This document shows positions 15,870-37,461 of a stretch of 64,000 bases of DNA, one piece after another. Within the stretch, counting starts at the first letter, position 1. Every line of letters begins with the position of its first letter. Source of the DNA: a plasmid. Made by a program: the position numbers and the translations under genes. The notes beneath the pieces were generated by a model. The model searched no databases and was not told where the DNA came from. It saw nothing but the letters and a program-made list of their open reading frames with translations. The DNA lies in sequence record NZ_CP011600.1. The stretch is one strand, 5' to 3'.

Positions 15870-16502
15870 TCAGTCCTGTTTCGGGTGGCTGGCGGGTTGC
15901 TGCCAGGGAACCTCAGTGAACGCCGTCAGGCGGATGAGACCATCCACGTAATGCACACTGAGCCGCCAGGCTTTGTGCGCATCCGGCAGCGAGATTTTCA
16001 GGTTACCGTTGGTGGTACTGGCACTCAGCGTGCCCTGCGCGATGATGTCACCGGTGGCCGTGTCGGTGATTTCATCATCGATACGGAACACAGAGGACAC
16101 ACCGTTCTTTTTGATGTACTCCGCCTCAGCAGCCAGTTGCTTTTTTATCTCGTCACGGTATTCGGCCGGAACCTGACGCAGCAGGGCAGCATGCTGGGCG
16201 TCCACGGTTTCGGGCGTGACGGAAAGACGGAGGTTAATGAAGGAACGAACCAGCATGCCGTTCAGCGCTGCATCGCCGGAGGCGGCATCGGAGATAAACG
16301 GCCGGTCAAATATCATGGGCGTGGTGAGTGTCTTCTGCGTTTTATAGAAGTGCCACGCCATTGCACCGTTAATGCTGATACCAATGGCCAGAATAAACAC
16401 AAGCAACACCAGTGATGAGATAACCAGGATGACCACCCGGTTACGCCCTTCCCGGACCTGATACTTCATATGCATTTTCCTTCTGAGGGAAATAAGCGCC
16501 AC
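15870..16502 (-). CDS. traE: TraE inner-membrane pilus assembly protein
   Basis: Single N-terminal TM (VVILVISSLVLLVFILAIGI), about 200 aa, between traL and traK. Exact start uncertain. Confidence 0.75.
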   Translation of the reverse strand: MALISLRRKMHMKYQVREGRNRVVILVISSLVLLVFILAIGISINGAMAWHFYKTQKTLTTPMIFDRPFISDAASGDAALNGMLVRSFINLRLSVTPETVDAQHAALLRQVPAEYRDEIKKQLAAEAEYIKKNGVSSVFRIDDEITDTATGDIIAQGTLSASTTNGNLKISLPDAHKAWRLSVHYVDGLIRLTAFTEVPWQQPASHPKQD

Positions 16503-16520
16503 CCGGAGGCGGCGCGCGGG

Positions 16521-16823
16521 TTACTGCATCCAGTGCCGGTTGCCCGAATCGGGCACCCGCCGGAACTGCAACCGGAGCAGTGCGGTCGGCAGATACCAGT
16601 AAAGGAGGTTCAGGAGCCACCAGGTGCCCTGCCCCTTCTTCAGATGGCGGATTAACAGCCAGAGCGCGGCAGCCACAAACAGCATCACAATGAACATGTC
16701 GCAGAGCAGACCGATACCGGCGCACACAACAATGACAAAGGCCTCCTCGGGCGGGAGTCCGATAAAACGTTTCTGCTGATTGAGGGTTTCCGGGAACTGG
16801 TACTGAAGGGAGTCCCTGTCCAT
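16521..16823 (-). CDS. traL: TraL pilus assembly protein
   Basis: Start placed at MDRDSLQYQFPETLNQQKRFIGLPPEE (ATG 16821-16823), matching the F TraL N-terminal pattern (..YKFP..L...R..GLP.DE). Hydrophobic remainder. Confidence 0.65.
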   Translation of the reverse strand: MDRDSLQYQFPETLNQQKRFIGLPPEEAFVIVVCAGIGLLCDMFIVMLFVAAALWLLIRHLKKGQGTWWLLNLLYWYLPTALLRLQFRRVPDSGNRHWMQ

Positions 16824-16830
16824 GACAGGA

Positions 16831-17223
16831 TTAGCCAGCGAGGGCGAAGAAGCTGCGGGTGATAACAATCAGGAATGCCAGGCCACCAACAAACAGCATC
16901 GGGTTACGGGTTTTCATATATGCGGCAGCGGAAATGAGGACCTCAGCAATATACAGACCCCACTCCACCGTACTCCCGTGCCCGAAGGTATCCTTCGCAT
17001 CCTGTTTCTGACCGGAGAGCAGGTCTTCCGCGTGTCCCAGATGGGGCAGCGCGATGAAAACCACCGCCAGACACAACAGCAACAGATTAATGCGATGGCG
17101 ATAAATCAGACTGAAGGCACCACGCAGCATGCCGATAAACAACGATGACGCACCAGTCCGGACTTCCGGGCAGGCTTCCGCAGCCCCCTCCGCCAGCGCC
17201 GGTTGAGTTAAGACGACTTTCAT
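16831..17223 (-). CDS. traA: TraA propilin
   Basis: 130 aa. C-terminal 70 aa ...DAKDTFGHGSTVEWGLYIAEVLISAAAYMKTRNPMLFVGGLAFLIV... aligns by eye with F pilin ...KATFGKDSSVVKWVVLAEVLVGAVMYMMTKNVKFLAGFAII... Long leader peptide. Confidence 0.7.
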   Translation of the reverse strand: MKVVLTQPALAEGAAEACPEVRTGASSLFIGMLRGAFSLIYRHRINLLLLCLAVVFIALPHLGHAEDLLSGQKQDAKDTFGHGSTVEWGLYIAEVLISAAAYMKTRNPMLFVGGLAFLIVITRSFFALAG

Positions 17224-17433
17224 GTCAGTTAGCCTCGATTTAAGTTAAGGAAATGTCATTGCGCGTAAACAGACGTAACGCGCGGTAAGTGTACATTTTC
17301 TCAAAAAAAAAAAATCTGTGACGCAAATCACGTTATTAGTGATTGTGATGCGATTTTTTAAGATTAATCCTGCAGCGGGGTGGAGTAGGCTTGCTGCCTG
17401 AACAGGGGATACCTCGTGAGGAGGTTTTTTTGT

Positions 17434-18054
17434 ATGAAAGTAAAAGAAAAAATGGGTGACGGTCGTGGCAGGCCGCGAAAATATGCCAGAGGAGAAATGC
17501 AGTACCGGAAATTATGGTTACCGGAAAATTTACTGATGGAGCTGCGAGTGGCAGCAAGGGTCAGAAATTTCACCACCAATGATGAAATCATCAGCCGTCT
17601 TATTGCTTCGTTAAACTTTTCGCCGCGCCGGCATATTATCAAAACGGATGAAGGACAACGTCTTGTAGCGCTTGCACGGTTATTTGATGAGTTTCTTCAG
17701 GCAAGACTCGATGTGATTCGCAAAAAATATCAGGCAGAGAAAATCAGTGACAACGGTAAAAAAACATTTGTCCCGGGAAAGAACCGCGCATTCAGCAGCA
17801 GTTTCCCGGAGAATTTACGCCGGGATATGGAAGTCAGCGCCCGGTTTAACCGGCGAAGTATGAACAGGGAAATCATGGAGCGGCTTCTGGATTCACTGAA
17901 TTATTTAACCGAACAGCAGTTACCCGAAAATGAGGAAGTCTGGCGACTGCGTGAACTGGCAATACTGTTTGATGAGTTTATTTCAGGGAAAGTGGTAAAA
18001 GCAGAAAATCCGCTCACGAAGGAAGTGGCAGGTGAAGAGAAAAAAGAAGAGTGA
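17434..18054 (+). CDS. tandem ribbon-helix-helix (Arc/MetJ-like) DNA-binding regulator, divergent from the tra operon
   Basis: RBS GAGGAGG 10 nt before the ATG at 17434. Two repeats of an RHH-like module (LPENLLMELRVAARVRNFTTNDEIISRLIASL and FPENLRRDMEVSARFNRRSMNREIMERLLDSL), each followed by a helical region. The track ORF starts at GTG 17416. Confidence 0.55.
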   Translation: MKVKEKMGDGRGRPRKYARGEMQYRKLWLPENLLMELRVAARVRNFTTNDEIISRLIASLNFSPRRHIIKTDEGQRLVALARLFDEFLQARLDVIRKKYQAEKISDNGKKTFVPGKNRAFSSSFPENLRRDMEVSARFNRRSMNREIMERLLDSLNYLTEQQLPENEEVWRLRELAILFDEFISGKVVKAENPLTKEVAGEEKKEE

Positions 18055-18550
18055 AGTTATAAGCAACCATTACGCATTATTAACGTTCTGAATCAGTACG
18101 GGCATTGTCTGTTTCACTCTGTAAATATACACACCGCAATAAGAATCCGTAATGTCACGGGGTAACGTCTCCCGATATTATTGCCATATCACAGCGACCT
18201 TTCACAGCGAATAAGGAAATCAGAAAGCGGGTGGCGTAAATGCCACCCGACACCGTCTGTAAAAACACACTTAAAAAATGCAAACGGGTCACCTCAGCCT
18301 CATGCATCGAAAAGCCTGTCCACAGCGTTATTTCGCGTATCTGTCCACCCACAACCATAACAGAATACACAGCCAGCCAGGACAGAACGCCAGAATCTTG
18401 CGACTTACAGAGCCCACTACAGAGATATCCTTCGCCGGGAAACCGGGCGGTAAATACGCTCCCGTTATTCGATATCAGCATCACGCATAAAAAACAGGGA
18501 GAGGAAACCGTCAGTGCTGAGAGGATACGTTCAGACCGGAAACATAAACA

Positions 18551-18580
18551 CGACCGGCACGCTTCCGGTCATGCTTTATT
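18551..18580. terminator. stem-loop (GACCGGCACGCTTCCGGTC) with adjacent T-run, candidate terminator just 3' of traM
   Basis: Seen in sequence. T-run on the + side, U-rich tract on the - side. Orientation ambiguous. Confidence 0.35.
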
Positions 18581-18597
18581 TTTTTAAAACAGGGTAT

Positions 18598-18987
18598 TTA
18601 TTCTTCCTGAATAAAGTGTTTACTTTCTGCCTTATCTTCCGCATCGGACATCCCGGTAAGATTCAGGTCCATAAGCGCTTCCAGTTTATCCTGAGTGTTC
18701 TCTCCCCTGATTTGCAGATACATTTCTGTCATCATGGCCATCATGATACTCGTACCTTCACGCGTACCGGCCACCCTGCGTATTAAGTCACGATTGAATC
18801 CTTCCATATCGAATTTATTCCCTTCGCTCTGATGCTTTTTGACCATCAGGCCAATGCCGACCAGTTCATTCACCACGGACGAGAAGTTAACCTCGCCATG
18901 CGTGGCGCCGTTCTGCATTTCAATCTGGACCAGCTCCAGCACTTCCCGCTCGGTCTTTTCCTTGAAGTAGATGTTTCTTCGGCCCAT
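18598..18987 (-). CDS. traM: TraM relaxosome accessory protein
   Basis: 129 aa. N-terminal region GRRNIYFKEKTEREVLELVQIEMQNGATHGEVNFSSVVNELVGIGLMV parallels F TraM KVNLYISNDAYEKINAIIEKRRQEGAREKDVSFSATASMLLELGLRV. Confidence 0.8.
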   Translation of the reverse strand: MGRRNIYFKEKTEREVLELVQIEMQNGATHGEVNFSSVVNELVGIGLMVKKHQSEGNKFDMEGFNRDLIRRVAGTREGTSIMMAMMTEMYLQIRGENTQDKLEALMDLNLTGMSDAEDKAESKHFIQEE

Positions 18988-19124
18988 TGTCCTGTCACCT
19001 CATGCCGCGCATAATGAAAACGCCCGGCAGTTATATGAATTAACGTAAATACGCTCACGCGGATGTAATATAAATTTGATGCGCGGGGATAACCTGTCCC
19101 GGATAATTATTCTCTCCGCATTCA

Positions 19125-19345
19125 GTGTGTGTCAATCCGGCACTGAGTAATATTTTTTTCAGGTGTGTGAATCCGGCACTGTTCACACCAAAAAGGTGTG
19201 TTAATTCAGCACTATGTATCAAAAACGTGTGTGTCAATCCGGCACTATACTGCGTTTTCGTGTGTGTTAATCCGGCACTGTGCCCTGTTTTTATGTGTGT
19301 TAATCCGGCACCATTCAGTATTTTAATGTGTGTCAATCCGGCACT
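19125..19345 (+). repeat. seven direct copies of a ~19-bp motif GTGTGT(Y)AATCCGGCACTG with ~33-bp period
   Basis: Copies start near 19125, 19163, 19196, 19229, 19261, 19294 and 19327. Upstream of traM, in the expected oriT/TraM-binding region. Confidence 0.8.
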
Positions 19346-19404
19346 GCACGCTGAAAATTTATCTATAATTCACTGATTTTAAATAATAGCCACAATAAAC
19401 ACAC

Positions 19405-19525
19405 ACCACAGTGCCGTTTACAGTGCCTGATTGACACACAATTAGGCACTGCATTGACACACAATCCGGCACTGCATTAACACACAATTAGGCACTGAAA
19501 CATGTGTTAATTAACACACACTTTG
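19405..19525 (-). repeat. four inverted-orientation copies of the same motif (CAGTGCC..ATTGACACACA)
   Basis: cagtgcctgattgacacaca, ttaggcactgcattgacacaca, atccggcactgcattaacacaca, ttaggcactgaaacatgtgttaattaacacaca. Opposite orientation to the 7 direct copies. Confidence 0.75.
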
Positions 19526-19584
19526 ATTTGAACAGGCTAAAAACAGGCAAAATATCAATGTAAGCAACTGTTTTAAAAAACAAA

Positions 19585-19620
19585 AACTGCAAGATGAAAT
19601 CTTGCGTGGGGTGTGATGAA
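19585..19620 (+). other. oriT: oriT core: inverted repeat GCAAGATGAAATCTTGC followed by F-like nic motif GCGTGGGGTGT|GATG
   Basis: F nic region is TTTGCGTGGGGTGT^GGTGCT preceded by an inverted repeat. Here it is 19604-19618 with predicted nick about 19614/19615 on the + strand, making the + strand the T-strand with the leading region to the right. Confidence 0.6.
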
Positions 19621-19791
19621 ACTAAAAGAAGAAAAAGCGGCTTGTGAAATAGATCGAAGTTGTTGGATTTATTATATCTCTGTCTCCTTTCAGGGATGTG
19701 CAGCAAGCGCCCCGTGCGCGTCTGTAACGAATTATCTTGCAACGGATGATCTGAACGCGTATTTTTCACAAAAAACCGTCAGGCACATTTT

Positions 19792-20361
19792 GTGCGCGCA
19801 TATGAGATTATCAGAATGAAATGGTTAGCTATCGCTGGCTTTGCTGCCGTATTCAGCGCACAGGCCGCGCCGGAATTATGTTTCGATGAAGCTGGTCGTG
19901 ACTATGGTATTGATCCCACGCTTCTGATGGCAATATCAATACAGGAGAGCCGGTTAAATCCGACAGCCATTAACAGCGCCAGTGCGGGCGGTACAGAAGA
20001 CGTCTGTGCGATGCAGCTCAACAGTAATAATTTCGGCAAGCTGAAAAACTTCAATATCACGCGTAAGGATCTGCTTAATAATCCCTGCATCTGCGTGTAC
20101 AGCGGCGCATGGATTTTAGCCAGAAACTTCCAGGCCTACGGCAGGAACTGGGACAGTGTGGGAATGTATAATACAGGACCGAATCCAAAACTGATAAAAG
20201 CAAGGCGTGAATATGCGAGGATCATAAAAAGCATCTACACGGTACTGCTCGCCAGAAAACAGTTACTTGAGAAAGGCACAGGCGATCCCGTTAAAACGTC
20301 GCCATTCAGTGAAAATGCTGACCAGAGAACACCGGTGAAAGACGAAAAAAAGCCCGGTTAA
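19792..20361 (+). CDS. lytic transglycosylase (SLT domain; F gene X/orf169 homolog)
   Basis: Signal peptide plus SLT motifs ESRLNPTAINS ... EDVCAMQLNSNNF ... YNTGP. Position next to oriT as orf169 in F. Confidence 0.8.
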   Translation: MRAYEIIRMKWLAIAGFAAVFSAQAAPELCFDEAGRDYGIDPTLLMAISIQESRLNPTAINSASAGGTEDVCAMQLNSNNFGKLKNFNITRKDLLNNPCICVYSGAWILARNFQAYGRNWDSVGMYNTGPNPKLIKARREYARIIKSIYTVLLARKQLLEKGTGDPVKTSPFSENADQRTPVKDEKKPG

Positions 20362-20377
20362 CCGGGCTTTTTATTTT

Positions 20378-21199
20378 CTAGCTCTTGAGCTTCGCAAACT
20401 CTTCGGCCATTTTCCACAATGCCTGATTAAGCTTTATGTCTCCGTCAATCCCTGTTACCGGGCGTGTGGTTGTATTTTTTCCTTTGGCCGTTCTGCCACG
20501 TAAACCACCCTTGATCAGGTTTTCCTGCACAGTGTTGTAGGTTGTCCAGAGGTCGGTTTGTTTATCTTCATAACGGCGCGGAACAAGAATTTTCTCTGCC
20601 GTGACGGGCGCTTCTTTGCCATCGTATTTAATATCGAGTGCGGTATTAGCGAGAAGGATTCTTTCGTCAGGAGAAACCGTGATCCCTTTCATCATCTCAA
20701 TATTTTCAGTGACATTATCAAATATCCCGAGCACCTCATATGCCCCTTCGATAACCTGCCCGACAATATCCCCTTTGTGAGGCACATTGATTTCCCCGAA
20801 TGACTTCCAGCAAACCAGACCATTCGTGCAGACCTGCCGATACATACCGGGGATCATTTTATAACTGCTGGACCCGTCGTGTGAGTTCAGTAAAAGAATC
20901 TCCGGCACTTCTTTACCCGAAAAATTATCGCCGCGACGTAAACGCAACATATGTTTCGTGAATTCCCGGCGGTCCGGATTACGTACACGTGACTGGCTGG
21001 CGTAATACGGCTGGAATCCCTCTTCACGCAGGCGATCCAGTAATGCGATGGTCGGAATATAGGTATATCTGTCAGAGCGTGATTCGTGTTTTTCCACTGA
21101 AAACGCGCTGGGAACAACACGCATCAGTTCATCATTCGTGAGAGGACGATTCTGGCGAATTGATGTCGGCGCAGCATAACGTGATGATAAACGGATCAT
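20378..21199 (-). CDS. DUF932-family leading-region protein (F orf273 equivalent)
   Basis: Start chosen at the ATG 21197-21199 with RBS AGGAGA, giving 273 aa, identical in length to F ORF273, which sits next to orf169. Confidence 0.55.
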   Translation of the reverse strand: MIRLSSRYAAPTSIRQNRPLTNDELMRVVPSAFSVEKHESRSDRYTYIPTIALLDRLREEGFQPYYASQSRVRNPDRREFTKHMLRLRRGDNFSGKEVPEILLLNSHDGSSSYKMIPGMYRQVCTNGLVCWKSFGEINVPHKGDIVGQVIEGAYEVLGIFDNVTENIEMMKGITVSPDERILLANTALDIKYDGKEAPVTAEKILVPRRYEDKQTDLWTTYNTVQENLIKGGLRGRTAKGKNTTTRPVTGIDGDIKLNQALWKMAEEFAKLKS

Positions 21200-21209
21200 G
21201 GTTATCTCC

Positions 21210-21512
21210 TTAAAAATAATTAGCAGGTACAACACGAAATAAAAAATCGAGTGGCAGAGCAGCTGCAACTGGCCAGCCGTTGCTGATCCAGACAGCGCAG
21301 TAATCCGGGATACCCTTTTCAAATACGTTGAGTTCTTCCGCATCTGCGGGTGGGGTGAAGTCGTGGCATTTCGCGCCCGGAATATCATCCGTCGCAGCAA
21401 AAACCCAGTTAAAGAGGTCGATGATCTGCCTGTCAGTCAGGCATGTGTTTTGATCACATCTTCCGGCGGTTTCTTCTCCGGCGCTTTTGACGTTGACGTT
21501 CTGTGTGTGCAT
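21210..21512 (-). CDS. hypothetical leading-region protein, paralog of 49228..49500, with conserved leader MHTQNVNVKSAGEETAGR
   Basis: 100 aa. Shares DLFNW...FTPPADAEEL...PDY..VWI.SGWPVAAA with the ORF at 49228..49500. RBS AAGGAGAA. Immediately downstream of Frpo-like element A. Confidence 0.5.
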   Translation of the reverse strand: MHTQNVNVKSAGEETAGRCDQNTCLTDRQIIDLFNWVFAATDDIPGAKCHDFTPPADAEELNVFEKGIPDYCAVWISNGWPVAAALPLDFLFRVVPANYF

Positions 21513-22045
21513 CCTGGTTTTCTCCTTCGGTGATGGTTAATCCATCTCCCTTGGCTGGTACTCTCGCGGCAACGGGCAGAGTAGCGACGGCAGACGAATG
21601 ACCGAATGGGCGTCACCGGAGGCCGCAGCGCAAGCGAGTCGTTTACGGCGAGTGCGAACGGGCGAGGAACGGCAACGCGTACCCATTCAGGGCAGGCGGA
21701 TGACGGTGCTACGAAATGCCCTCCGCGTGAGGACGGCAAGGGTGATGGCCTCACCGGACTGGCAGGATGCACACACCCGACCCGGCAACGTCATATCGCC
21801 GGGTCGCCCTTAAAGCGCCGGCGGCCACGTCGCCGGTGCGGTGAGAGCGGCGCGTCCCCCGGACGCAGCAAGCGCGCCCTAGACCTTGCCATCGGACACT
21901 AGCGAGCAGCCCGAAACCGCGCAGCGGGTTCGGCGGAGCTTAGCCGGCGGCCTGCCGCCGGGTTAGCGGAGTGTGGCCCTGACGACCCGGCCGGAACGGA
22001 CGGGGAGCCGAAGGGGGCCAGTGCCCTGAAGAGGTTTTTTGTGTT
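21513..22045 (+). promoter_or_regulatory. Frpo-like structured GC-rich repeat, copy A (putative single-stranded DNA promoter)
   Basis: About 530 bp, over 90 percent identical to copies at about 23788-24315, 25514-25995 (partly) and 43892-44350. Many internal hairpins, for example GCCCGAAACCGCGCAGCGGGTTCGGC. Lies on the predicted transferred strand directly upstream of a minus-strand gene. Confidence 0.5.
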
Positions 22046-22242
22046 CAGTGATCGGGAAAAGACGAATAACCAGGACAGGAATATGCGCCGGCACAGCAGC
22101 AAACATGTCAGGAATACGGGAGAGGGTAAGACACTATGTACCAGGCGTACGGGGAAAAGGGGGCGCGCCGCAGGCGCCCCCGTCCTGCCCGGTTCCCCGC
22201 AGGGGAACGCCCTTCCCGGCCGTGGCCGTTCCGGGCAGATGA

Positions 22243-22599
22243 TCAGCCGATTTCACCCTCTTCCATTTCAACGTACATCTCGGCAGCCATCATTAACGCC
22301 ATGAGTCCATTATGGTGCGGCGTGGTGATGCCAACCTGTTCACACAGGTGCATCAGATCGGCCAGGAAATCGATGATCACGGTCTCCATCTCTTCTGAAT
22401 CATTGGCCAGGCCAGTACGCTCAGCAAACAACCAGAGTGCCTCTGCCGCCAGGGCGGCGCGGTCTGCATTGTTCCAGACAACAGCCGGTGACGGGCGGCC
22501 GGAAACATTCGCCGCCAGATCGGCAAGCTCAGACGCAGGCAAGGATTCACCGCGACTCGCTCCCAACGCAGGCCCCATTTCTTCTTGTGCTTCTGACAT
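22243..22599 (-). CDS. highly acidic small protein (118 aa; about 25 D/E vs 6 K/R) - DNA-mimic-like candidate
   Basis: RBS AGGAGA before the ATG at 22597-22599. The antisense 162-aa track ORF has junk-like composition. Confidence 0.5.
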   Translation of the reverse strand: MSEAQEEMGPALGASRGESLPASELADLAANVSGRPSPAVVWNNADRAALAAEALWLFAERTGLANDSEEMETVIIDFLADLMHLCEQVGITTPHHNGLMALMMAAEMYVEMEEGEIG

Positions 22600-22654
22600 G
22601 ATGAGTTCTCCTGATGGTGGGTGATAAGGCCGCCATTACTGGCGGCCCCGTTTA

Positions 22655-22804
22655 TTACGCCTCAGCCTCCATCCGGGCATTTACGGTAGTCATGAACTGC
22701 TGCCAGAATTCAAAACGCAGCGCGGGCATATGCGCGCGTTTTCCTGCTTTCAGGGCATTTACAAACGCGTTTGCCTGTGCGACGATTTGCGGGTCAAATA
22801 TCAT
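22655..22804 (-). CDS. small ORF (49 aa) not in the ORF track
   Basis: Manual translation gives MIFDPQIVAQANAFVNALKAGKRAHMPALRFEFWQQFMTTVNARMEAEA with RBS GGAGG 7 nt upstream. Below the 60-aa track cutoff. Confidence 0.35.
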   Translation of the reverse strand: MIFDPQIVAQANAFVNALKAGKRAHMPALRFEFWQQFMTTVNARMEAEA

Positions 22805-22889
22805 GGATTAGTCCTCCATAGTGGTTTTGATGTGGACAGCACCTCGACCGTGCTGCCCGTTGATTAAGCAGGGTTGCCACCCTGCTTTT

Positions 22890-23354
22890 TTAATGCCCGG
22901 AATTCAGTTGCTTCTCCGGACAGAAACGGGTGATCACATCCTCGATCAGCGCTTTATGTTTCAGGGTGTGCAGGTCATGGCACTCAAAGAAACGCCCCTC
23001 CACACTCACAAAAATTGCGGTCACATCGCCGCCCGTAAATTCGCGCGACTTGAACGACTCCCCGCCAAATCCCCGGCACCAGTCCAGCGGCGGAAGAACT
23101 TCGAGCTGGTCGATGTACCGGGCTTCGGAAATCTCCACCCACGGACGGCGATAACCCAGGTTTTGCGCTTCCTTCACTTCGGAAAAAGACAGCAGTTCTG
23201 TGTCCGGGTAGATACGGCGCACGGCGTTCAGTGTTTTCGCACCATATTCGGTCACCCATTCGCCGTCCTGCTGCCTGGCCCAGGCATAGACGGTGTTGCA
23301 GGACGGGACATAAAACGCCATCGATGGGGTATTGAGAATTTCAGTTACGGACAT
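22890..23354 (-). CDS. hypothetical leading-region protein (154 aa)
   Basis: Strong RBS AAGGAGATAAGA-ATG. Protein-like composition. The antisense 228-aa ORF was rejected. Confidence 0.5.
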   Translation of the reverse strand: MSVTEILNTPSMAFYVPSCNTVYAWARQQDGEWVTEYGAKTLNAVRRIYPDTELLSFSEVKEAQNLGYRRPWVEISEARYIDQLEVLPPLDWCRGFGGESFKSREFTGGDVTAIFVSVEGRFFECHDLHTLKHKALIEDVITRFCPEKQLNSGH

Positions 23355-23415
23355 TCTTATCTCCTTAGTGATGGTGGCCGGTTACCCGGCCGGGTCGTTG
23401 CGGTTAACGTTCCGG

Positions 23416-23787
23416 TCAGTAATCAGCGGCCAGTTCAGACAACAGCAGGTCGCATTCATCCTGTGCCCGCGCCTCCTCTGACGCAGTTACCATGTAACCC
23501 CGTTTAGCCGCCGCACCGATGAAAGCAGGGCGGTCATTCAGCGGCAGTTTTGCCAGGTGAATCATCGCCATCGATAAGAGGCGGGCTTCATAAATCTCGT
23601 AGTACAGCCCACACCCACGGTTTGCCTGTTTTTCCATCCGTGCCAGAACCACATCGGCGCGAATAACGTCGAACGGGTTACGTGAATGAATGTTTGTGAT
23701 AAAGCCATCAGTACGCATTGGTTTTATCCCCCATCTTCCGGCGGTTTCCTCTCCGGCGGTTTTGACGTTGACGTTCTGTGTGTGCAT
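23416..23787 (-). CDS. hypothetical protein carrying the conserved leader MHTQNVNVKTAGEETAGR
   Basis: 123 aa, downstream of Frpo-like copy B. Body unrelated to the other leader-bearing ORFs. In-frame internal Met (MRTDGF...) is an alternative start. Confidence 0.45.
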   Translation of the reverse strand: MHTQNVNVKTAGEETAGRWGIKPMRTDGFITNIHSRNPFDVIRADVVLARMEKQANRGCGLYYEIYEARLLSMAMIHLAKLPLNDRPAFIGAAAKRGYMVTASEEARAQDECDLLLSELAADY

Positions 23788-24315
23788 CCTGGTTTTCTCC
23801 TTCGGTGATGGTTAATCCATCTCCCTGGCTGGTACTCTCGCGGCAACGGGCCGAGTAGCGACGGCAGACGAATGACCGAATGGGCGTCACCGGAGGCCGC
23901 AGCGCAAGCGAGCCGTTTACGGCGAGTGCGAACGGGCGAGGAACGGCAACGCGTACCCATTCAGGGCAGGCGGATGACGGTGCTACGAACAGCCCTCCGC
24001 GTGAGGACAGCAGGGGAGATGGCCTCACCGGACTGGCAGGATGCACACACCCGACCCGGCAACGTCATATCGCCGGGTCGCCCTTAAAGCGCCGGCGCCC
24101 GTCGCCGGTGCGGTGAGAGCGGCGCGTCCCCCGGACGCAGCAAGCGCGCCCCGGACCTTCGCCATCGGACACTAGCGAGCAGCCCGAAACCCGAAGGGGT
24201 TCGGCGGAGCTTAGCCGGCGGCCTGCCGCCGGGTTAGCGGAGTGTGGCCCTGACGACCCGGCCGGAACGGACGGGGAGCCGAAGGGGGCCAGTGCCCTGA
24301 AGAGGGTTTTGCTTT
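23788..24315 (+). promoter_or_regulatory. Frpo-like structured repeat, copy B
   Basis: Near-identical to copy A across about 520 bp. Internal track ORFs (23708..24046, 23872..24087, 24065..24658) are artefacts of the repeat. Confidence 0.5.
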
Positions 24316-24560
24316 GAATGCATCCTGGAACACCCGGTAACAGCACGCACACAGGCAGCCACCGGAAACCGCAGCACACCCGGACCCACTCACCGGATAT
24401 AATGATGAGAGTGACGCCGCGAAGGGGGAGGCCCGGTGCGTCAGCACCGGCTTCCCCCGGCACGCAGTGCCGGTGGTTTTCGGGCCGTGCGCCGGGGCAG
24501 GCCACCGGGCAGACGGCTCCCGGTCTGGTACGCACCAGGAGCCTGTGGTGATGAGCTGTC

Positions 24561-24863
24561 TCAGGCCGGTTGTTTTCTGTTAAACGTGACGGCGTAATCG
24601 TCATAACTGAGACAGCCCCGCAGCCGCGTGAGCCTGACCACATTCTCCGCCAGGCCATTCATCGTCAGTATCCGCTCGATACCTGCAAAGAGGTCTTCAC
24701 GCTCACCGAGCGGAAACCAGAGGTTGCTGTTGCTGCCGCTCAGGAGCGGATGGCCGCAAAAATGCACTCCCCTGCCCTGCCTGGTCAGGCAGACCGTAAC
24801 AGTGATATCAGCGCGGATATGCTCTGCTGATGTACTGAGACCAGGTTGTCCGGTCATTTCCAT
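24561..24863 (-). CDS. hypothetical protein (100 aa)
   Basis: RBS AGGAGAACATC-ATG. Follows the stop of 24935..25513. Confidence 0.4.
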   Translation of the reverse strand: MEMTGQPGLSTSAEHIRADITVTVCLTRQGRGVHFCGHPLLSGSNSNLWFPLGEREDLFAGIERILTMNGLAENVVRLTRLRGCLSYDDYAVTFNRKQPA

Positions 24864-24934
24864 GATGTTCTCCTTCCTGCGAATTCAGATGATGTGTCAC
24901 CCCGGCAAGGCCTGCCGGGGTGTGGCGCCGTGAT

Positions 24935-25513
24935 TCAGCGGACGTACTGCCAGTGACAGAAGGGACTCTCGTCGTCCCCTTTTTTCAGGTGTTCACGGGC
25001 GTACTTCTCCAGTCCCTTGTGTTCTGCCTCAAAAATCGCTCTCGCATCGTCGTTCATCACACCGGAAGCCATATAGACCTGCGTTGTTTCGTACTCGGCT
25101 GTTTCCGCGCACTCGTCATCGCCGATCCGGTTAGCACAATGCACCACCCTTGCTTCCCATGTTTCCGGCACGGCCTGCGGCTGCGGGCGGTATACAAACA
25201 CCGTGACCAGCAGTTTTTCCTGCGGTTTTATCAGCATCATCTCGATACCTGAACGGACACCCCTGTCGCCAAAAACCCACTCATCGAGCGCGAACCGCGC
25301 GGCTGACAGATACTCAATGCCCATGTCAAACGACGTGCGAATTGCAGCCGTATTCACTGCCGGGGATCCGGGAATAAACAGGCTGCGGCGATACGAACGC
25401 GCAGCACGTTCCCGGATGTCGTTAACATCACGGTTTAATGCCGTTGAATTCTGGTTTTCACCCCCTGTTTCGGCGGTTGTGGTTGCGGCGGTTTTGCTGT
25501 TCTGTGTTTTCAT
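24935..25513 (-). CDS. hypothetical leading-region protein (192 aa) with divergent leader MKTQNSKTAATTTAETGGENQ
   Basis: Downstream of Frpo-like copy C. The N-terminus is a diverged version of the conserved leader. Confidence 0.45.
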   Translation of the reverse strand: MKTQNSKTAATTTAETGGENQNSTALNRDVNDIRERAARSYRRSLFIPGSPAVNTAAIRTSFDMGIEYLSAARFALDEWVFGDRGVRSGIEMMLIKPQEKLLVTVFVYRPQPQAVPETWEARVVHCANRIGDDECAETAEYETTQVYMASGVMNDDARAIFEAEHKGLEKYAREHLKKGDDESPFCHWQYVR

Positions 25514-25995
25514 GCTGGTTCTCCTGTGTTGGTTACTGAAACCCTGTTTCGGTCGGAATGGCGCGGCAAAGGGCCAGGTAGCGACGGCAGACGAATGACC
25601 GAATGGGCGTCACCGGAGGCCGCAGCGCAAGCGAGCCGTTTACGGCGAGTGCGAACGGGCGAGGAACGGCGAGGCGAACCCATTCAGGGCAGGCGGATGA
25701 CGGTGCTACAGCAGCCTGACGCAGCCATCGCCCGGAACAGGCTGTACCGGCGGAGGATGAGCATGAAAACAGACAGAACAGTGCCCCTGCCCTGAGAGGC
25801 CGCGTGCGGCCGGTGAAAGCGGCGCGTCCCCCGGACGCAGCAAGCGCGCCCCGGACCTTTGCCATCGGACACCAGGAGCAGCCCGAAACCGCGCAGCGGG
25901 TTCGGCGGAGCTTAGCCGGCGGCCTGCCGCCGGGTTAGCGGAGTGTGGCCCTGACGCCCCGGCCGGAACGGACGGGGAGCCGAAGGGGGCCAGCT
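25514..25995 (+). promoter_or_regulatory. Frpo-like structured repeat, copy C (distal two-thirds conserved, gene-proximal part diverged)
   Basis: Shares ...GTAGCGACGGCAGACGAATGACCGAATGGGCGTCACCGGAGGCCGCAGCGCAAGCGAG... and ...GCGGCGCGTCCCCCGGACGCAGCAAGCGCGCCCCGGACC...GCCCGAAACCGCGCAGCGGGTTCGGCGGAGCTTAGCCGGCGGCCTGCCGCCGGGTTAGCGGAGTGTGGCCCTGACG... with copies A, B and D. Confidence 0.45.
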
Positions 25996-26078
25996 TTCAG
26001 ATGTTCATTTTTCTGTTTTTTGTGGTGCTCTGGCGTATGCTGGAATTGCGCAAAAAAAGCGCAACCGGAGGCGTTCTC

Positions 26079-26336
26079 ATGTCAGAAAATGAAGACGAAG
26101 ATGATGCTGAAGACGCGTTTTACGACGAGACGTGCAGGATAGTGGGCCAGTGCTGCCTGATGCTGGCCATCAACGATGCAGAAACCGACCGGGCGCAGCT
26201 GGTATACCAGTTGAAACGACTTCACTGGAAAATCATGCAGCTGACCAGTGAATCCCACAACGGGATACTGATGGCCATCGGGCAACTGGAGACGGCGGAG
26301 ATGTATGAGGAGAGGACGGGCAGGCGGCGGGAATAA
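26079..26336 (+). CDS. small protein with acidic N-terminus (85 aa), opposite orientation to its neighbours
   Basis: RBS GGAGG then ATG at 26079. MSENEDEDDAEDAFYDE.... Followed by hairpin-rich sequence. Confidence 0.4.
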   Translation: MSENEDEDDAEDAFYDETCRIVGQCCLMLAINDAETDRAQLVYQLKRLHWKIMQLTSESHNGILMAIGQLETAEMYEERTGRRRE

Positions 26337-26539
26337 AGCGGAAGCGCCGCGGGCGCATCCGCCCTTCCCCCCGTTCCCCGGAGGGGAACAGTGTTTCCGG
26401 GATGTTCATGCGTGCGGCCGCGCCCGGAACGAAAAGGGGGCTGCCAGTCGGACAACTGACAGCCCCTTGTAAAGGCGCTTTCGGCAGAACTGACCCCCTC
26501 AGCCCTGAAAAGGCGGGGTTTCCCCCGCCTCCAGGTAGC

Positions 26540-26698
26540 TTACTTACCGGATTCGTAAGCCATGAAAGCCGCCACCTCCCTGTTCGTGTCCCTGTACCGG
26601 ATTTCGCAGAGCGATTTACGGGTCAGGTAAGTGAATATCAGCAGTGTGAGACACACTATTAACACGCACCAGAGCAGGGTACTTCGTGGCAGTTTCAT
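26540..26698 (-). CDS. hok: Hok-family type I toxin (hok/flmA/srnB-like)
   Basis: Manual translation [52 protein letters not shown] (52 aa) is a near-canonical Hok. Below the track cutoff. Confidence 0.75.
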
Positions 26699-26769
26699 AG
26701 CTGACTTCTCCTGTCAACGCAAAGCAGAAGTGTCACCATCGGTGCGAAACAGAGATGTCATGCTTTGGT

Positions 26770-27057
26770 TCAGAGAATGCGTTTGACCGCCTCGCTATAT
26801 ACTTCCGAGCGTTCTCTTTTCCCAACAGAAATCACGAAAACGACAACTTTCTCGTCTATAACCTGGTATACAAGGCGATAGCCTGAAGACCGGAGCTTAA
26901 TCTTGTAACAATCAGGCATACCACGGAGCTTGTTTGCTTCAATCCGGGGTGACTCAAGTACTTCAACCAGCTTCTTTTTCAACTGTTCACGTACCGTCGA
27001 GCCCAGCTTTCGCCATTCCTTTAGTGCCCGCTCGTCAAAATCCAGAAAATACGCCAT
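26770..27057 (-). CDS. relE: RelE/ParE-family type II toxin
   Basis: 95 aa with the ...YRLVYQVIDEKVVVFVISVGKRERSEVY... RelE fold signature. Start overlaps the relB stop. Confidence 0.8.
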   Translation of the reverse strand: MAYFLDFDERALKEWRKLGSTVREQLKKKLVEVLESPRIEANKLRGMPDCYKIKLRSSGYRLVYQVIDEKVVVFVISVGKRERSEVYSEAVKRIL

Positions 27058-27296
27058 CAGAGTTCATCCAGCGTCACACGTACTGGCTTAGGATTACAAA
27101 GTCGTTCTTTCACTATCTCCACAAGTTCAGCATCTTCATCACTCAGGAGTGTCTGTTTGAACGGCAAGCGTTCATTGTCAGCGATATACTCGAGCATGAG
27201 ACGAAGCGCTTCAGAAGGAGTTACGCCCATTTTTTCAAGCGCGGCGTAAGAACGCGCTTTAAGTTCATCGTCAATACGTAGGTTAATGCTACCCAT
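27057..27296 (-). CDS. relB: RelB/DinJ-family antitoxin
   Basis: 79 aa. MGSINLRIDDELKARSYAALEKMGVTPSEALRLMLEYIA is typical of RelB RHH antitoxins. Confidence 0.75.
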   Translation of the reverse strand: MGSINLRIDDELKARSYAALEKMGVTPSEALRLMLEYIADNERLPFKQTLLSDEDAELVEIVKERLCNPKPVRVTLDEL

Positions 27297-27303
27297 GTCT
27301 TAC

Positions 27304-27345
27304 ACCCCTTGTAATTACAAATGTCATTACAAGTATCGCACTACA
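27304..27345. promoter_or_regulatory. relBE operator-like repeats (TTGTAATTACAA / ATGTCATTACAAG)
   Basis: Palindromic TTGTAAT/ATTACAA repeats immediately upstream of relB. Confidence 0.4.
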
Positions 27346-27534
27346 ACATGCTTAGGGCAAGTCACGAAGTAAGTCAGAAAGTAGTCGTAAGAACGGTGAT
27401 CACTGTCCGCTTTGTGCCAGAAGTGGACGGCAGGATTTGTTGAACATTTCAGACAAAACCAAACTCAAAACAACTATTGAAATCAAGCCAGCATAGCGGA
27501 TACATTACGCACGTTGTTACTTTGTATCATCAGG

Positions 27535-27912
27535 ATGCCGTTAACTGTGTTTATCAGCCGTGAAGTCATTTCCAGAATCGTGCTTATCATCATGGCTGTT
27601 GCCGTGCTGAGCAGTTCGTTTATGGCAAAGCCACAGGCTGCATACAGCGTTCAGGAAACAACGTCCATCAGTGACCATCAACACGACAGCGATGAACCAC
27701 TGAATGAGCACGATCCATTGTTGTTTCACTCCCACGGTAGCGTGCATCACCTCAATGCCGATCATTCCCACGATCTGAATAAACTCTTTGCTCTGCCTAC
27801 TCTGCACGCATGGAATCCGGGCATGCGGGTGATATATGCGTTGAGTTCAGAACAAATACTGCAAATGCCGCAGTCCACCCCCGAACGCCCTCCGAGAATC
27901 CTGTCTGCGTAA
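27535..27912 (+). CDS. secreted His-rich protein (paralog of 32084..32455)
   Basis: Signal/TM segment then HQHDSDEPLNEHDPLLFHSHGSVHHLNADHSHD. ATG at 27535. The track start 27514 is TTG. Confidence 0.45.
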   Translation: MPLTVFISREVISRIVLIIMAVAVLSSSFMAKPQAAYSVQETTSISDHQHDSDEPLNEHDPLLFHSHGSVHHLNADHSHDLNKLFALPTLHAWNPGMRVIYALSSEQILQMPQSTPERPPRILSA

Positions 27913-27955
27913 TAACTTCTGCTAATTCGTTATTATTCAACATGTAAGGATTTTT

Positions 27956-28693
27956 ATGTATACCAGCCTTGATACACAGGGCCGGTTGAGCGCTCGCCTG
28001 CTTTCAGCTCAGGCGCGTTCGGCTTGTCTGTTTTTCCTGTTGTTACTGCTTTTCTACAGCCAGGGCGCGTATGCGCACGGCGTGGCGGAAGGCGACAAAG
28101 GGTACATCCAGGAAATCACCGGGGTGAACATCATCCCGTTTATCTACCTTGGCGCGAAGCACATGGTGACCGGTTACGATCATCTGCTGTTTCTGTTCGG
28201 GGTGATTTTCTTTCTCTACAAAATGCGTGATATCGGGCTGTACGTTAGCCTGTTCGCTATCGGGCATTCAACGACGCTGCTCATCGGCACCTTCTTTGAT
28301 ATCAGCGTCAGTGCTTACCTTATTGACGCCATTATCGGGCTGTCCGTGGTCTATAAAGCGCTTGATAACCTCGGGGCATTCCAGCGCTGGTTTGGCGTTC
28401 AGCCCAACACGAAGCTTGCGACGCTCATCTTTGGATTCTTCCACGGTTTTGGTCTGGCAACCAAAATCCAGGAATTCGAAATCTCTCCCGATGGCCTGTT
28501 TGTCAACCTGATTGCCTTCAACATTGGCGTTGAGATCGGCCAGCTGCTCGCGCTGAGCGCCATCCTGATCGTTATGAGCTACTGGCGGCAAACGGCGAGC
28601 TTTTTCCGACACGCTTATACCGCCAATGTGGTGATGATGAGCGCGGGATTTCTGTTAATGAGTTACCAGCTTTGTGGCTACATTTTAGCCTGA
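27956..28693 (+). CDS. HupE/UreJ-family Ni/Co transporter-like membrane protein
   Basis: HupE/UreJ signature HMVTGYDHLLF plus second motif FGFFHGFG. Six predicted TM segments. Confidence 0.65.
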   Translation: MYTSLDTQGRLSARLLSAQARSACLFFLLLLLFYSQGAYAHGVAEGDKGYIQEITGVNIIPFIYLGAKHMVTGYDHLLFLFGVIFFLYKMRDIGLYVSLFAIGHSTTLLIGTFFDISVSAYLIDAIIGLSVVYKALDNLGAFQRWFGVQPNTKLATLIFGFFHGFGLATKIQEFEISPDGLFVNLIAFNIGVEIGQLLALSAILIVMSYWRQTASFFRHAYTANVVMMSAGFLLMSYQLCGYILA

Positions 28694-28706
28694 GGGAGAC
28701 AAAACA

Positions 28707-29396
28707 ATGTACAACACTGATTTACCAACACGCGCAGAATTACCTTCTGCCATCAAACTGATGCAGTCCACTATCCTCGCCGCCATCGTGGCGCTGACGC
28801 TGCTGATCACCGTCGTCATGCCTTCGGAATACGGCATTGATCCTACTGGCGTGGGTCGTTTACTGGGGCTTAAGCAGATGGGAGAAATCAAAACGCAGCT
28901 TGCCGAAGAAGCTGATGCCGATAATCAGGCCAGCGCTGTTCAGCAAGGACAGCTGGCTGCGCCAGTTAATGAGCGACCGATCCCGGATAATCCTCCGGCA
29001 ATAACGCAGAACACCTACCCGGAGCTGAGCGTTCCGGCGACCACGCGCGCGCCGGAAGTACCATCGGCTGGCTCGCAACGTCATCAGATGCTCATCACCC
29101 TGAAGCCTAACGAAGCTGCTGAAGTTAAACTGGAAATGCGCAAAGATGCCCGCGTGACCTATCAGTGGACAAGTTCCGGACCGGTAAACGTGGATGCGCA
29201 CGGCGATCCGGTCAACGCCCCGAAAGGCTTCTACCATGGCTATGGTAAAGCCCGGCAGATCACATCCGGAGACGGCGTTTTACAGGCCGCGTTCGAGGGT
29301 AAACATGGCTGGTTCTGGCGAAATCGTGGTTCTGAGACCATCACGATCCAGCTTGATACAACCGGCGACTACCTGAACATCAAACGGGTTATCTGA
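28707..29396 (+). CDS. membrane-anchored periplasmic protein, unknown function
   Basis: 229 aa, N-terminal TM, co-directional and adjacent to the HupE/UreJ gene. Confidence 0.45.
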   Translation: MYNTDLPTRAELPSAIKLMQSTILAAIVALTLLITVVMPSEYGIDPTGVGRLLGLKQMGEIKTQLAEEADADNQASAVQQGQLAAPVNERPIPDNPPAITQNTYPELSVPATTRAPEVPSAGSQRHQMLITLKPNEAAEVKLEMRKDARVTYQWTSSGPVNVDAHGDPVNAPKGFYHGYGKARQITSGDGVLQAAFEGKHGWFWRNRGSETITIQLDTTGDYLNIKRVI

Positions 29397-29401
29397 TAAA
29401 T

Positions 29402-29428
29402 CAGGGGCAGGATAACCTGCCCCTTTTC
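29402..29428 (+). terminator. rho-independent terminator (CAGGGGCAGGATAACCTGCCCCTTTT)
   Basis: Perfect hairpin followed by a T-run, between convergent genes. Confidence 0.6.
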
Positions 29429-31737: not shown

Positions 31738-31766
31738 AGTGTAGAGATTAATACATATGGTAGAGA

Positions 31767-31960
31767 TTGCTACATATTTTCAGTCTTTCTAACCGTACAT
31801 ATCGCTATCTTTTTATGGTGCTCATAATTGCTCTTATCGGTACCGGTCTTGCTACCGTTGCACTGGGCCTGCTGGCGGGCGACAGGGCAGGGGGAGTCGG
31901 GAACGGCGCTGGCAATGAAGATGCTTGCTTATATTCTGGTCGCCCCGGTCGCTGATGCAT
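31767..31960 (+). pseudogene. truncated/frameshifted duplicate of the N-terminus of the MFS transporter gene at 34484
   Basis: NRTYRYLFMVLIIALIGTGLATVALGLLAGDRAGG matches NRTYRHLFMAQVIALIGTGLATVALGLLAYDLAGDRAG. The next helix (AMKMLAYILVAPVA) appears in a different frame (31828..). No full ORF follows. Confidence 0.5.
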
Positions 31961-32035
31961 TATGCGGGCCTTTTTATTCATATCGCCAATACAAGACTTT
32001 ACATTCCAGCCCTTACATCCTCCCCGGGGGGATGC

Positions 32036-32054
32036 TAATCTTTTTATACCGTTG
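32036..32054. promoter_or_regulatory. G/C-tract palindrome CATCCTCCCCGGGGGGATG (RcnR/CsoR-type operator candidate)
   Basis: 30 bp upstream of the His-rich ORF at 32084. Same family as the palindromes at 34441, 37375 and 37434. Confidence 0.5.
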
Positions 32055-32083
32055 TCATTGTCTATTGAGGAAAGCAATCAGCG

Positions 32084-32455: not shown

Positions 32456-32517
32456 TCGCTGTTACCGGCAGTTTTTGCTGCCCGGCTTTAATCAACTTCA
32501 GATTTAGCGGAGAGGCT

Positions 32518-33438: not shown

Positions 33439-33446
33439 CGCCCGAT

Positions 33447-34457: not shown

Positions 34458-34483
34458 GTGATTTCAAACCAAGAGATTTCCTG

Positions 34484-36157: not shown

Positions 36158-36169
36158 GGCAAGCGAAAC

Positions 36170-37449: not shown

Positions 37450-37461
37450 GTAAAATTATAA

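Follow-up and report, generated by a model that had tools for sequence, protein, structure and literature searches.

Which protein reads the long run of repeats that lies between traM and the nick site of an F-like plasmid, and is this run peculiar to a single plasmid? The question is raised by a 64,000-nucleotide stretch of the plasmid sequence record NZ_CP011600.1 (hereafter, the window), in which region 19100-19620, located within an 828-bp intergenic stretch between traM and a lytic transglycosylase (SLT) gene, represents the origin of transfer (oriT). Here, we describe the repeats of this oriT and their conservation, and we propose, with a probability of roughly 70 %, that they are sites for a relaxosome accessory protein with TraM as the reader, i.e. 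the equivalents of sbmA-C of plasmid F. The arrangement, which recurs throughout the lineage and apparently has not been described so far, represents a variant of the F-type oriT with its TraM sites rather than a new kind of system.

The plasmid belongs to MOBF12 group D (Enterobacter/Pantoea type). Plasmids of this group, the prototype of which is pENT01, are F-like and have been described from Enterobacter, Pantoea, Erwinia, Rahnella and their relatives (Fernandez-Lopez et al. 2016, PMC5102898). They possess TraM and lack TraJ, and the traJ locus is occupied by EntFR, a gene encoding a protein with two ribbon-helix-helix (RHH) domains that was proposed as an analogue of TraY or TraJ (PMC5102898); this assignment is probable. 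In agreement, the window encodes TraM as well as a two-RHH Arc-family protein between traA and traM, and a search of the window for a traJ-like open reading frame (ORF) found none. The words oriT and repeats have zero occurrences each in the text of PMC5102898, and searches of the literature retrieved no description of this oriT, nor of the function of EntFR beyond that paper. The oriT architecture of the group appears to be undocumented in this literature. The oriT region is 100 % identical to that of pENT-812c (CP026189.1; Enterobacteriaceae bacterium ENNIH2; MOBF/MPF_F). BLAST comparison of the whole window identifies pENT-812c as a close relative, the window having extra segments in the leading region and representing a different molecule.

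A direct-repeat array and a second cluster of different build

Array 1 consists of seven direct copies of GTGTGT(Y)AATCCGGCACTG that span positions 19127-19346 and share the 17-mer GTGTGTYAATCMGGCAC(TG) as a motif (Table 1). The start-to-start distance is 36 bp in the first step and 33 bp in the following five, and all units have the same orientation, being separated by T-tract spacers of 14-17 bp. Searching the 64-kb window for GTGTGTYAATCMGGCAC with up to two mismatches retrieved eight matches, all of them within 19127-19439, as compared to 0.02 matches expected by chance from dinucleotide-preserving shuffles; a count of eight was reached in none of 100 shuffles. The seven direct copies at a regular period of ~33 bp, which an earlier note on this DNA had reported from inspection of the letters, are thus real. 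An isolated perfect 13-bp core, TAATCAGGCACTG, also occurs at 34124-34136; it is located within an unrelated ORF of 267 amino acids (33447-34250) and was judged to be a chance match.

Array 1 can also be resolved into pentameric sub-sites (GTGTG/CACAC and GGCAC/GTGCC), a definition that constitutes our own model. In this description the array becomes a series of sub-site pairs recurring every 33 bp. The centres of GTGTG and GGCAC are 12 bp apart in six of the seven units as tabulated, and in copy 2 as well when counted from the start of its motif.

The second cluster, which is separated from array 1 by an AT-rich spacer, turned out to be built differently from the earlier description, according to which four inverted copies at ~22-bp spacing follow after a gap of about 60 bp. 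In fact, there is only one complete inverted 19-mer, and it is succeeded by three direct units of 23 bp and a palindrome. The gap measures 74 bp up to the full inverted copy, or 50 bp when a degenerate element starting at 19397 is taken as the border. Within the 23-bp units, only the GT/AC-alternating flank (the GTGTGTYAAT half) is flipped, and the 13-bp core CAATnnGGCACTG is oriented as in array 1. Half-site mapping located inverted GTGTGTYAAT halves at 19430, 19453, 19476 and 19510 (spacing 23, 23 and 34 bp) and direct GGCACTG halves at 19445, 19468 and 19491, the latter half being inverted at 19409 and 19421 only. Viewed as sub-sites, cluster 2 is a continuous run with distances of 10-13 bp, and together with array 1 it covers 393 bp. 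Palindromic parts of the repeat region are confined to 19421-19451 and 19501-19519. The palindrome at 19501-19519 is altered symmetrically in relatives (GTGTGCTAATTAGCACAC), which points to a site for a symmetric dimer.

Repeat geometry is conserved throughout the lineage

The relatives compared comprise Phytobacter plasmids, two plasmids of Pantoea sp. At-9b, a P. agglomerans plasmid, a Pectobacteriaceae plasmid, Erwiniaceae PD-1, E. billingiae pEB170 and Rahnella plasmids. In addition, a pattern scan of 185,579 species-representative genomes returned nine further stretches, all of them from Pantoea, Rahnella or a Citrobacter metagenome-assembled genome. The two-part repeat architecture is present in every relative examined, and the geometry is nearly identical to the base pair in 18 repeat-bearing loci. 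The period is 33 bp, decayed copies leaving gaps of ~64-66 or 97 bp. Counted between starts, the last direct copy and the inverted copy are 95 bp apart in 17 of the 18 loci, the exception being locus L023, where cluster 2 is laid out differently; the subsequent steps of 11, 23 and 23 bp are likewise conserved in relatives. The distance from the last unit to nic is 134 bp, again in 17 of 18 loci. What varies is the number of direct copies, of which between four and eight are detectable at the 33-bp period in the individual loci, and ten in L023. Thus, the array that had been regarded as an unusual elaboration is genuine and looks functional, but it is not peculiar to this plasmid: it is shared by the lineage together with its geometry.

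Sequence conservation follows the units. When 52 array-1 copies from nine plasmids (the window and eight relatives) were aligned, motif positions 1-19 had an average information content of 1.71 bits as compared to 0.43 bits for the spacers. Positions G1, T2, T4-T6, A8-T10 and G14-C17 are invariant, the central CCGG is variable (CMGG, or TA in locus L025), and the spacers retain merely a weak T-tract. Between the units of the two Pantoea sp. At-9b plasmids the spacers hardly differ, implying that the array also expands by unit duplication. Two distant loci, both found through TraM homologues, extend the comparison. L025 (TraM 65 % identical) has retained both motif and geometry. L023 (Logan SRR22103695 contig, 1640-1990, minus strand; TraM 50 % identical) has the same motif in its ten direct copies, the spacing of which alternates between ~24 and 31 bp, the sum of 55 bp corresponding to five turns of 11 bp.

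An F-type nic site next to the repeats

The window contains GCGTGGGGTGT^GATG (the caret marks the nick), in which the T^G junction falls at 19614/19615. The nic core is identical to that of F over the 13 nucleotides 5' of nic and the first nucleotide 3' of it, and it is invariant in all relatives. The second position 3' of nic is A in the window, as compared to G in F and also in the distant relatives L023 and L025; the nic core of L023 has the exact F form GTGT^GGT. In F, the site cleaved by TraI has been defined experimentally as 5'-TTTGCGTGGGGTGT^GGT (PMC2504302). Judged from this identity, nicking very likely occurs on the plus strand at 19614/19615, that is, after T19614 of the nic stretch AAATCTTGCGTGGGGTGTGATGAAAC.

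Directly 5' of the core, an inverted repeat with arms of 7 bp is predicted to form a hairpin in the transferred strand (DNA fold -6.1 kcal/mol, z = -4.65). Relatives differ in the loop but not in the arms, apart from a compensatory pair of changes in pKPC-c606 (GCAAGAC/GTCTTGC). F has an inverted repeat at the equivalent position (GCAAAAAC-TTG-TTTTTGC). In total, 54 nucleotides 5' of nic can be aligned with F without gaps, and in both plasmids a TAAG/TAAC element starts 54 nucleotides 5' of nic. The segment of F that is collinear here includes IHF-A, which extends from +23 to +60 relative to nic (PMC12117103). An IHF site may therefore be present near nic, an assignment that rests solely on collinearity with F, because the exact IHF consensus WATCAANNNNTTR has zero matches in the window. 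The AT-rich spacer between array 1 and cluster 2, the length of which is conserved, is a second candidate for a bending site of IHF type.

The relaxase gene traI is located outside the window. The relaxase domain of TraI from pENT-812c matches F TraI36 (1p4d) with E = 3.3e-90, and the tyrosine pairs as well as the histidine triad align. Hence, the locus has the features of an F-type oriT, namely the nic core, the inverted repeat 5' of it, a location between traM and the leading region, and a MOBF relaxase as represented by pENT-812c. Since the nic core is identical to that of F and adjoins the conserved hairpin, the T-strand corresponds to the plus strand, with the leading region at higher coordinates. 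A block of leading-region genes, namely a DUF932 gene, hok, psiA, psiB and ardA, is indeed encoded there on the minus strand, in line with transfer of the plus strand and its use as a template for early genes. In these respects the earlier note was right: the inverted repeat beside nic, the match to the F nic site with a nick at about 19614/19615 and the polarity of transfer all hold.

TraM is the probable reader of the repeats

The product of traM matches the Tra_M family of Pfam (E = 3.6e-12; 46.8 bits, cutoff 27.7; residues 1-89), and so do all 79 of its 79 database homologues. A profile of the family matches the structures of pED208 TraM (3on0; E = 4e-4, residues 1-85), F TraM (4qpo) and R1 TraM (1dp3), the alignments to the N-terminal domains of the F and R1 proteins covering residues 3-53 and 5-55. 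The profile was needed for this purpose, as the search of the PDB with the single sequence gave a marginal result (E = 0.27).

In the TraM proteins of F, R100 and pED208, DNA specificity depends on residues 3, 5 and 7, which are K-N-Y in F and K-Q-Y in pED208 and R1, whereas R100 has R-I at positions 3 and 5 (Wong 2011, PMC3159463). The residues predicted to read DNA in the present protein are R3, N5 and Y7, a combination unlike all four alleles compared in that study. All 20 aligned homologues, with identities down to 50 %, share this triad, and where the triad is invariant the DNA motif is, too. This joint invariance of R3-N5-Y7 and of the repeats favours TraM as the reader.

The position of the array relative to the traM promoter is consistent with such a role. 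A predicted sigma-70 promoter of traM, which is the best match in 17150-19850 with 11 of 12 positions, has both hexamers and the spacer length invariant in nine plasmids, whereas the 5' untranslated region downstream is highly variable. Read on the opposite strand, its -35 hexamer corresponds to TGTCAA within repeat copy 1. Position 7 of copy 1 is always C, which yields TTGACA, whereas the other copies have C or T at this position. Because the -35 box lies within copy 1, occupancy of this copy should occlude the promoter; TraM bound there would repress its own gene, as sbmA and sbmB do in F.

Alternative readers and alternative functions

The earlier note had considered either a TraM-like complex or a different binding protein, with the RHH protein encoded at 17434 as a candidate. 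As outlined above, TraM is the most likely binder. That EntFR reads the repeats instead, as the TraY analogue of this lineage whose tandem RHH domains recognize asymmetric sites, is in our view improbable given the comparative evidence. EntFR does have two RHH repeats, like TraY, and the repeat units are asymmetric direct repeats as such a protein would require. Moreover, the 11-bp core CAATCAGGCAC is present ~10 bp upstream of the EntFR start codon in two relatives, L005 (Pectobacteriaceae C111, 1215-1235) and L010 (Rahnella, 987-1007). However, the beta-strand of the first RHH domain of EntFR varies (RKLWLP, RVLWAP, RNIRAP, WRLRAP) across plasmids that have the invariant motif in common. Plasmid pEB170 (169,778 bp) combines a complete tra operon and traM with an intact array of the exact standard geometry, and yet tblastn detected no EntFR homologue anywhere on this plasmid (best E-value 0.2). 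Conversely, in pKPC-c606 (CP026198.1, 2260-2960) traM is a pseudogene with a stop after 16 codons and the repeats are degenerate and irregular, whereas EntFR (39 % identical to the protein of the window) and the nic/hairpin region are intact. The divergent EntFR/traA promoter lacks copies of the 19-mer in the window and in most relatives, a different conserved palindrome being present instead; except for the 11-bp core in L005 and L010, no motif that is common to this promoter region and oriT is conserved across plasmids. Finally, the TraY sites of F adjoin IHF-A near nic and do not overlie the traM promoter (PMC12117103).

Another possibility, which we consider unlikely, is that the units are composite, their GTGTGTYAAT and GGCAC(TG) halves being read by two proteins, e.g. 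TraM together with EntFR, or with a host factor such as ArcA or IHF, in a mixed complex. In array 1 and cluster 2 the halves are oriented differently relative to each other, and halves are also found on their own (CAGTGCCG at 19409; the GTGTGTTAAT palindrome at 19501-19519), as two readers would allow. On the other hand, flipped sub-sites are compatible with a symmetric RHH dimer that is flexibly linked, the two halves show the same invariance across all relatives, and their 12-bp centre distance is fixed in array 1, which fits the two RHH dimers of a single tetramer. The symmetric changes in the palindrome likewise suggest one symmetric dimer, and pEB170 lacks EntFR. The sequence TGTTAATTAA of this palindrome resembles the ArcA box, WGTTAATTAW; a reading of the palindrome as an ArcA box is disfavoured, given that it changes symmetrically in relatives whereas ArcA recognizes direct repeats. 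Scarcely credible is a third view, in which the arrays are not relaxosome sites at all, representing replication iterons, a partition centromere or a functionless tandem duplication (minisatellite). In favour of this view, iterons as well as parC- and parS-type centromeres typically consist of regular direct repeats of ~20 bp in tandem, and the nearly identical At-9b spacers attest to recent duplication or homogenization of units. Yet neither a rep nor a par gene is adjacent, the neighbours being traM and the SLT gene in every locus, and the array is always placed between traM and nic at a fixed distance to the latter. Conservation of the motif but not of the spacers, with a geometry kept across genera, is incompatible with neutral duplication, and copy 1 also provides the -35 box of traM.

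Several observations weigh against TraM as the reader or leave it less secure. Overall conservation fails to separate the two candidates, EntFR being well conserved too; what distinguishes them are the beta-strand residues and the plasmids pEB170 and pKPC-c606. These two plasmids are single natural experiments that a host-encoded EntFR or general decay of the transfer system could explain. The motif resembles neither the A(G/C)CG(G/C)T of F nor the GANTC of pED208 and R1, and the assignment of sub-sites is a model. The independent orientation of the half-sites suits two readers equally well, and this point as well as the CAATCAGGCAC core upstream of EntFR provides weak counter-evidence. An AlphaFold2 model of the TraM monomer, which has two long C-terminal helices (61-93 and 99-124), is of low confidence (pLDDT 64.7) and was not used as evidence; Foldseek comparison of this model with the PDB gave no match at E <= 0.001, the C-terminal tetramerization and TraD-binding domain thus being putative. 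The TraI protein considered above is that of a close relative, pENT-812c, and not the window plasmid's own. Finally, searches of the literature retrieved no report of binding, footprinting or nicking for this or any other group D plasmid.

Some features of the regulatory genes deserve mention in their own right. In pEB170, the EntFR slot (NC_014305.1, 132837-135778) contains genes for a histidine kinase, an oxidoreductase, a GNAT protein and a response regulator, which looks like a swap of the regulatory module, with a two-component system in place of EntFR. The CAATCAGGCAC core in L005 and L010, which is not found upstream of EntFR in the window, is a hint of cross-regulation involving EntFR and the repeat-binding protein. 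In eight plasmids, the region of the divergent traA and EntFR promoters (window 17224-17433) is conserved. It contains an A12 tract at ~17301-17312, the palindrome TGTGAC-n4-GTCACA at 17318-17333 (TGTGACGCAAATCACG in the window), which resembles a CRP site (TGTGA-N6-TCACA), and the imperfect inverted repeat GCGCGTAAACAGACGTAACGCG. None of these three elements occurs in oriT.

A possible arrangement of TraM on the repeats

If TraM is the binder, each unit of 17-19 bp could accommodate one tetramer whose two RHH dimers would occupy GTGTG and GGCAC, respectively; the modelled sub-sites lie 12 bp apart, which is consistent with the span of a tetramer's RHH dimers in the pED208 complex. Array 1 would then seat up to seven tetramers at intervals of 33 bp, and cluster 2 with its approximately eleven sub-sites at 10-13 bp would have room for about five more. 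Binding to one face of the DNA, as the earlier note had deduced by equating 33 bp with three helical turns, is conceivable only if the DNA is underwound to ~11 bp per turn. At ~11-11.5 bp per turn, 33 bp would correspond to three and 23 bp to two turns, aligning the tetramers on the same side, whereas on relaxed B-DNA 33 bp amount to 3.14 turns and the tetramers would describe a slow spiral instead. The C-terminal domains of TraM would be free to recruit the coupling protein TraD, and the TraI relaxase would nick the plus strand at TTGCGTGGGGTGT^G. The fixed distances to nic argue for a relaxosome of defined three-dimensional shape.

One may go further and imagine a phased scaffold in which about a dozen TraM tetramers form a continuous one-faced or gently superhelical filament, i.e. 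a centromere-like 'transfer-some' comparable to ParR-parC. We regard this idea as tentative and rather doubtful. If it were true, the GTGTG and GGCAC sub-sites would be modules that RHH dimers on flexible tethers could read in both orientations, and the fixed 134 bp to nic would determine where a multivalent platform for the recruitment of TraD stands with respect to the relaxase. Unit number (four to eight, ten in L023) and packing (33 bp versus 24/31 bp) would then tune transfer frequency or plasmid specificity.

Features of the locus and its surroundings

Table 1. Features of the oriT region and flanking genes (window coordinates; an empty strand cell denotes a feature without strand; ^, nick)
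Feature	Position	Strand	Description
EntFR	17434..18054	+	Arc-family protein with two RHH repeats (Pfam Arc, E = 3.5e-6); opposite strand to the tra genes, at the traJ locus of F
traM	18598..18987	-	RHH relaxosome accessory protein (Pfam PF05261 Tra_M)
traM promoter, predicted sigma-70	19106..19135	-	-35 TTGACA (19135-19130), 18-bp spacer, -10 AATAAT (19111-19106)
Array 1, copy 1	19127..19145	+	GTGTGTCAATCCGGCACTG; overlaps the traM -35 box
Array 1, copy 2	19163..19181	+	GTGTGTGAATCCGGCACTG
Array 1, copy 3	19196..19214	+	GTGTGTTAATTCAGCACTA; weakest copy
Array 1, copy 4	19229..19247	+	GTGTGTCAATCCGGCACTA
Array 1, copy 5	19262..19280	+	GTGTGTTAATCCGGCACTG
Array 1, copy 6	19295..19313	+	GTGTGTTAATCCGGCACCA
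Array 1, copy 7	19328..19346	+	GTGTGTCAATCCGGCACTG
AT-rich inter-cluster spacer	19347..19396		conserved length; candidate bending (IHF-type) site
Degenerate element	19397..19416	-	AAACACACAC-ca-CAGTGCCG; flipped GTGTG-type half followed by flipped GGCAC half; kept in relatives
Sole complete inverted 19-mer	19421..19439	-	plus strand reads CAGTGCCTGATTGACACAC
Cluster 2 units	19430..19498	+	three 23-bp direct units ATTRACACACAATYMGGCACTGM starting at 19430, 19453 and 19476; from repeat finding and half-site mapping
Palindrome	19501..19519		ATGTGTTAAT/TAACACAC; two GTGTGTTAAT halves head to head
AT-rich nic-proximal segment	19555..19588		gapless collinearity with the F segment holding IHF-A; putative IHF site
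Inverted repeat	19589..19605	+	GCAAGAT-GAA-ATCTTGC; 7-bp arms; predicted T-strand hairpin directly 5' of the relaxase site
nic core	19602..19615	+	TTGCGTGGGGTGT^G; predicted nick 19614/19615, by homology with F
Lytic transglycosylase gene	19816..20361	+	Pfam SLT, E = 3.2e-20 (annotation); counterpart of F orf169, same position as in F

The features discussed so far are compiled in Table 1. On its leading side, oriT is followed first by the SLT gene. On the other side, a gap of 540 bp (18055-18597) separates the convergent 3' ends of EntFR and traM. It contains neither an ORF with a Pfam match nor an Rfam hit, and terminator-like hairpins are located at 18228-18249 (minus strand) and 18552-18570 (plus strand). 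The length of this gap is very different among relatives and amounts to only ~40 bp in L005, L010, L023 and L025. An Rfam scan of 16500-27000 yielded no family above threshold and no FinP-like RNA.

In the leading region, a GC-rich element of ~0.5 kb is present in three copies (window 21457-22045, 23732-24316 and ~25546-26017), each on the oriT-distal side of small ORFs of the minus strand. Copies 1 and 2 share sub-blocks of 278, 142, 65 and 95 nucleotides that are 85-98 % identical; in copy 3 the 278-nucleotide block is 63 % identical and the 95-nucleotide block is absent. These elements may be candidates for repeated single-strand promoters or for ssi-type (Frpo-like) sequences. Relative to pENT-812c, the best database match, the window has two extra segments, 22040-23707 and 26713-39554, and is therefore not collinear with it. 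The former is a duplicated leading-region module, and the latter a block of ~12.8 kb with unrelated genes, e.g. for an MFS-type transporter at 34484-35782. At the other end, window 1-756 is just 93 % identical to the traH region of pENT-812c.

Significance and comparison with known systems

TraM connects the relaxosome with TraD and is among the factors that decide which plasmid is moved by a transfer apparatus. Its DNA recognition is understood for the alleles of F, R1, R100 and pED208 only, to which a fifth specificity, R3-N5-Y7 reading GTGTGTYAATCMGGCAC, is proposed to be added here. With its unusually clean, separable tandem sites and a spacing kept to the base pair between genera, the lineage is a convenient natural system. 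It raises the questions of how many tetramers an oriT needs, how phasing and unwinding lead to cooperativity, and how autoregulation is wired to relaxosome assembly. The plasmids circulate in Pantoea, Erwinia and Phytobacter as well as in hospital-associated Enterobacteriaceae that also carry KPC plasmids, and an oriT and nic defined by homology help to predict mobilization.

The locus shares with the oriT of F the order of SLT/orf169 gene, oriT and traM, the TraI recognition core TTGCGTGGGGTGT^G with an inverted repeat ending in TTGC directly 5' of it, and an AT-rich segment collinear with IHF-A. In F, nic is followed by IHF-A, sbyA/C, IHF-B, sbmC, sbmB, sbmA and the traM promoter. Here too, several accessory-protein sites are predicted between nic and the traM promoter, one of them overlapping the promoter, which fits the autoregulation of TraM in F. 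The start of traM and nic are 627 bp apart here and 323 bp apart in F, traJ and traY of F are not found, the divergent double-RHH gene EntFR being in their place, and the specificity residues of TraM are R3-N5-Y7 in contrast to K3-N5-Y7. The TraM sites of F are three palindromic clusters of abutting A(G/C)CG(G/C)T hexamers over ~200 bp (PMC3159463), whereas here seven tandem direct 19-bp units at 33 bp are combined with a cluster of 23-bp period, and the motif is unrelated in sequence. As sbmA of F comprises four hexamer motifs, and sbmA and sbmB bind two TraM tetramers each, with sbmC in addition (Wong 2011, PMC3159463), the statement that F has only three TraM sites understates this plasmid: about six tetramers in F face approximately 11-12 possible ones here.

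In the complex of pED208 TraM with sbmA (PDB 3ON0), the RHH tetramer spans two motifs 12 bp apart on DNA that is underwound to ~12 bp per turn (PMC3159463). The sub-sites of our model, which lie 12 bp apart in array 1 and every 10-13 bp in cluster 2, would be consistent with such a spacing. In pED208, K3-Q5-Y7 reads GANTC, and a corresponding GAATC is present here in repeat copy 2 only. Moreover, in sbmA of pED208 four interleaved motifs form a compact palindrome, which places two tetramers on opposite faces of the DNA (PMC3159463), as compared to the discrete units of array 1 that have the same orientation and recur at 33 bp. Array 1 thus follows neither of the known sbm motifs, A(G/C)CG(G/C)T of F or GANTC, nor the palindrome of four interleaved motifs. 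The repeats would represent an allele specificity different from that of the sbm sites of F and pED208.

Helically phased tandem repeats that assemble cooperative multi-dimer complexes are known from the ParR-parC iterons of R1, from the omega and ParG operators and from the 11-bp direct repeats in the oriT of IncN plasmids (R46/pCU1). Such arrays for RHH or accessory proteins often overlap the promoter of the binder's own gene, and they serve partition or other MOB families; the likeness to the repeats described here is one of mechanistic analogy. Compared with F, the group D oriT would offer a roughly two-fold higher valency, tandem phased arrays in place of palindromic clusters and a new recognition sequence, without a qualitative jump. 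It is an elaboration of a known mechanism, which leaves current concepts unchanged and would provide a good model for the cooperativity and specificity of TraM.

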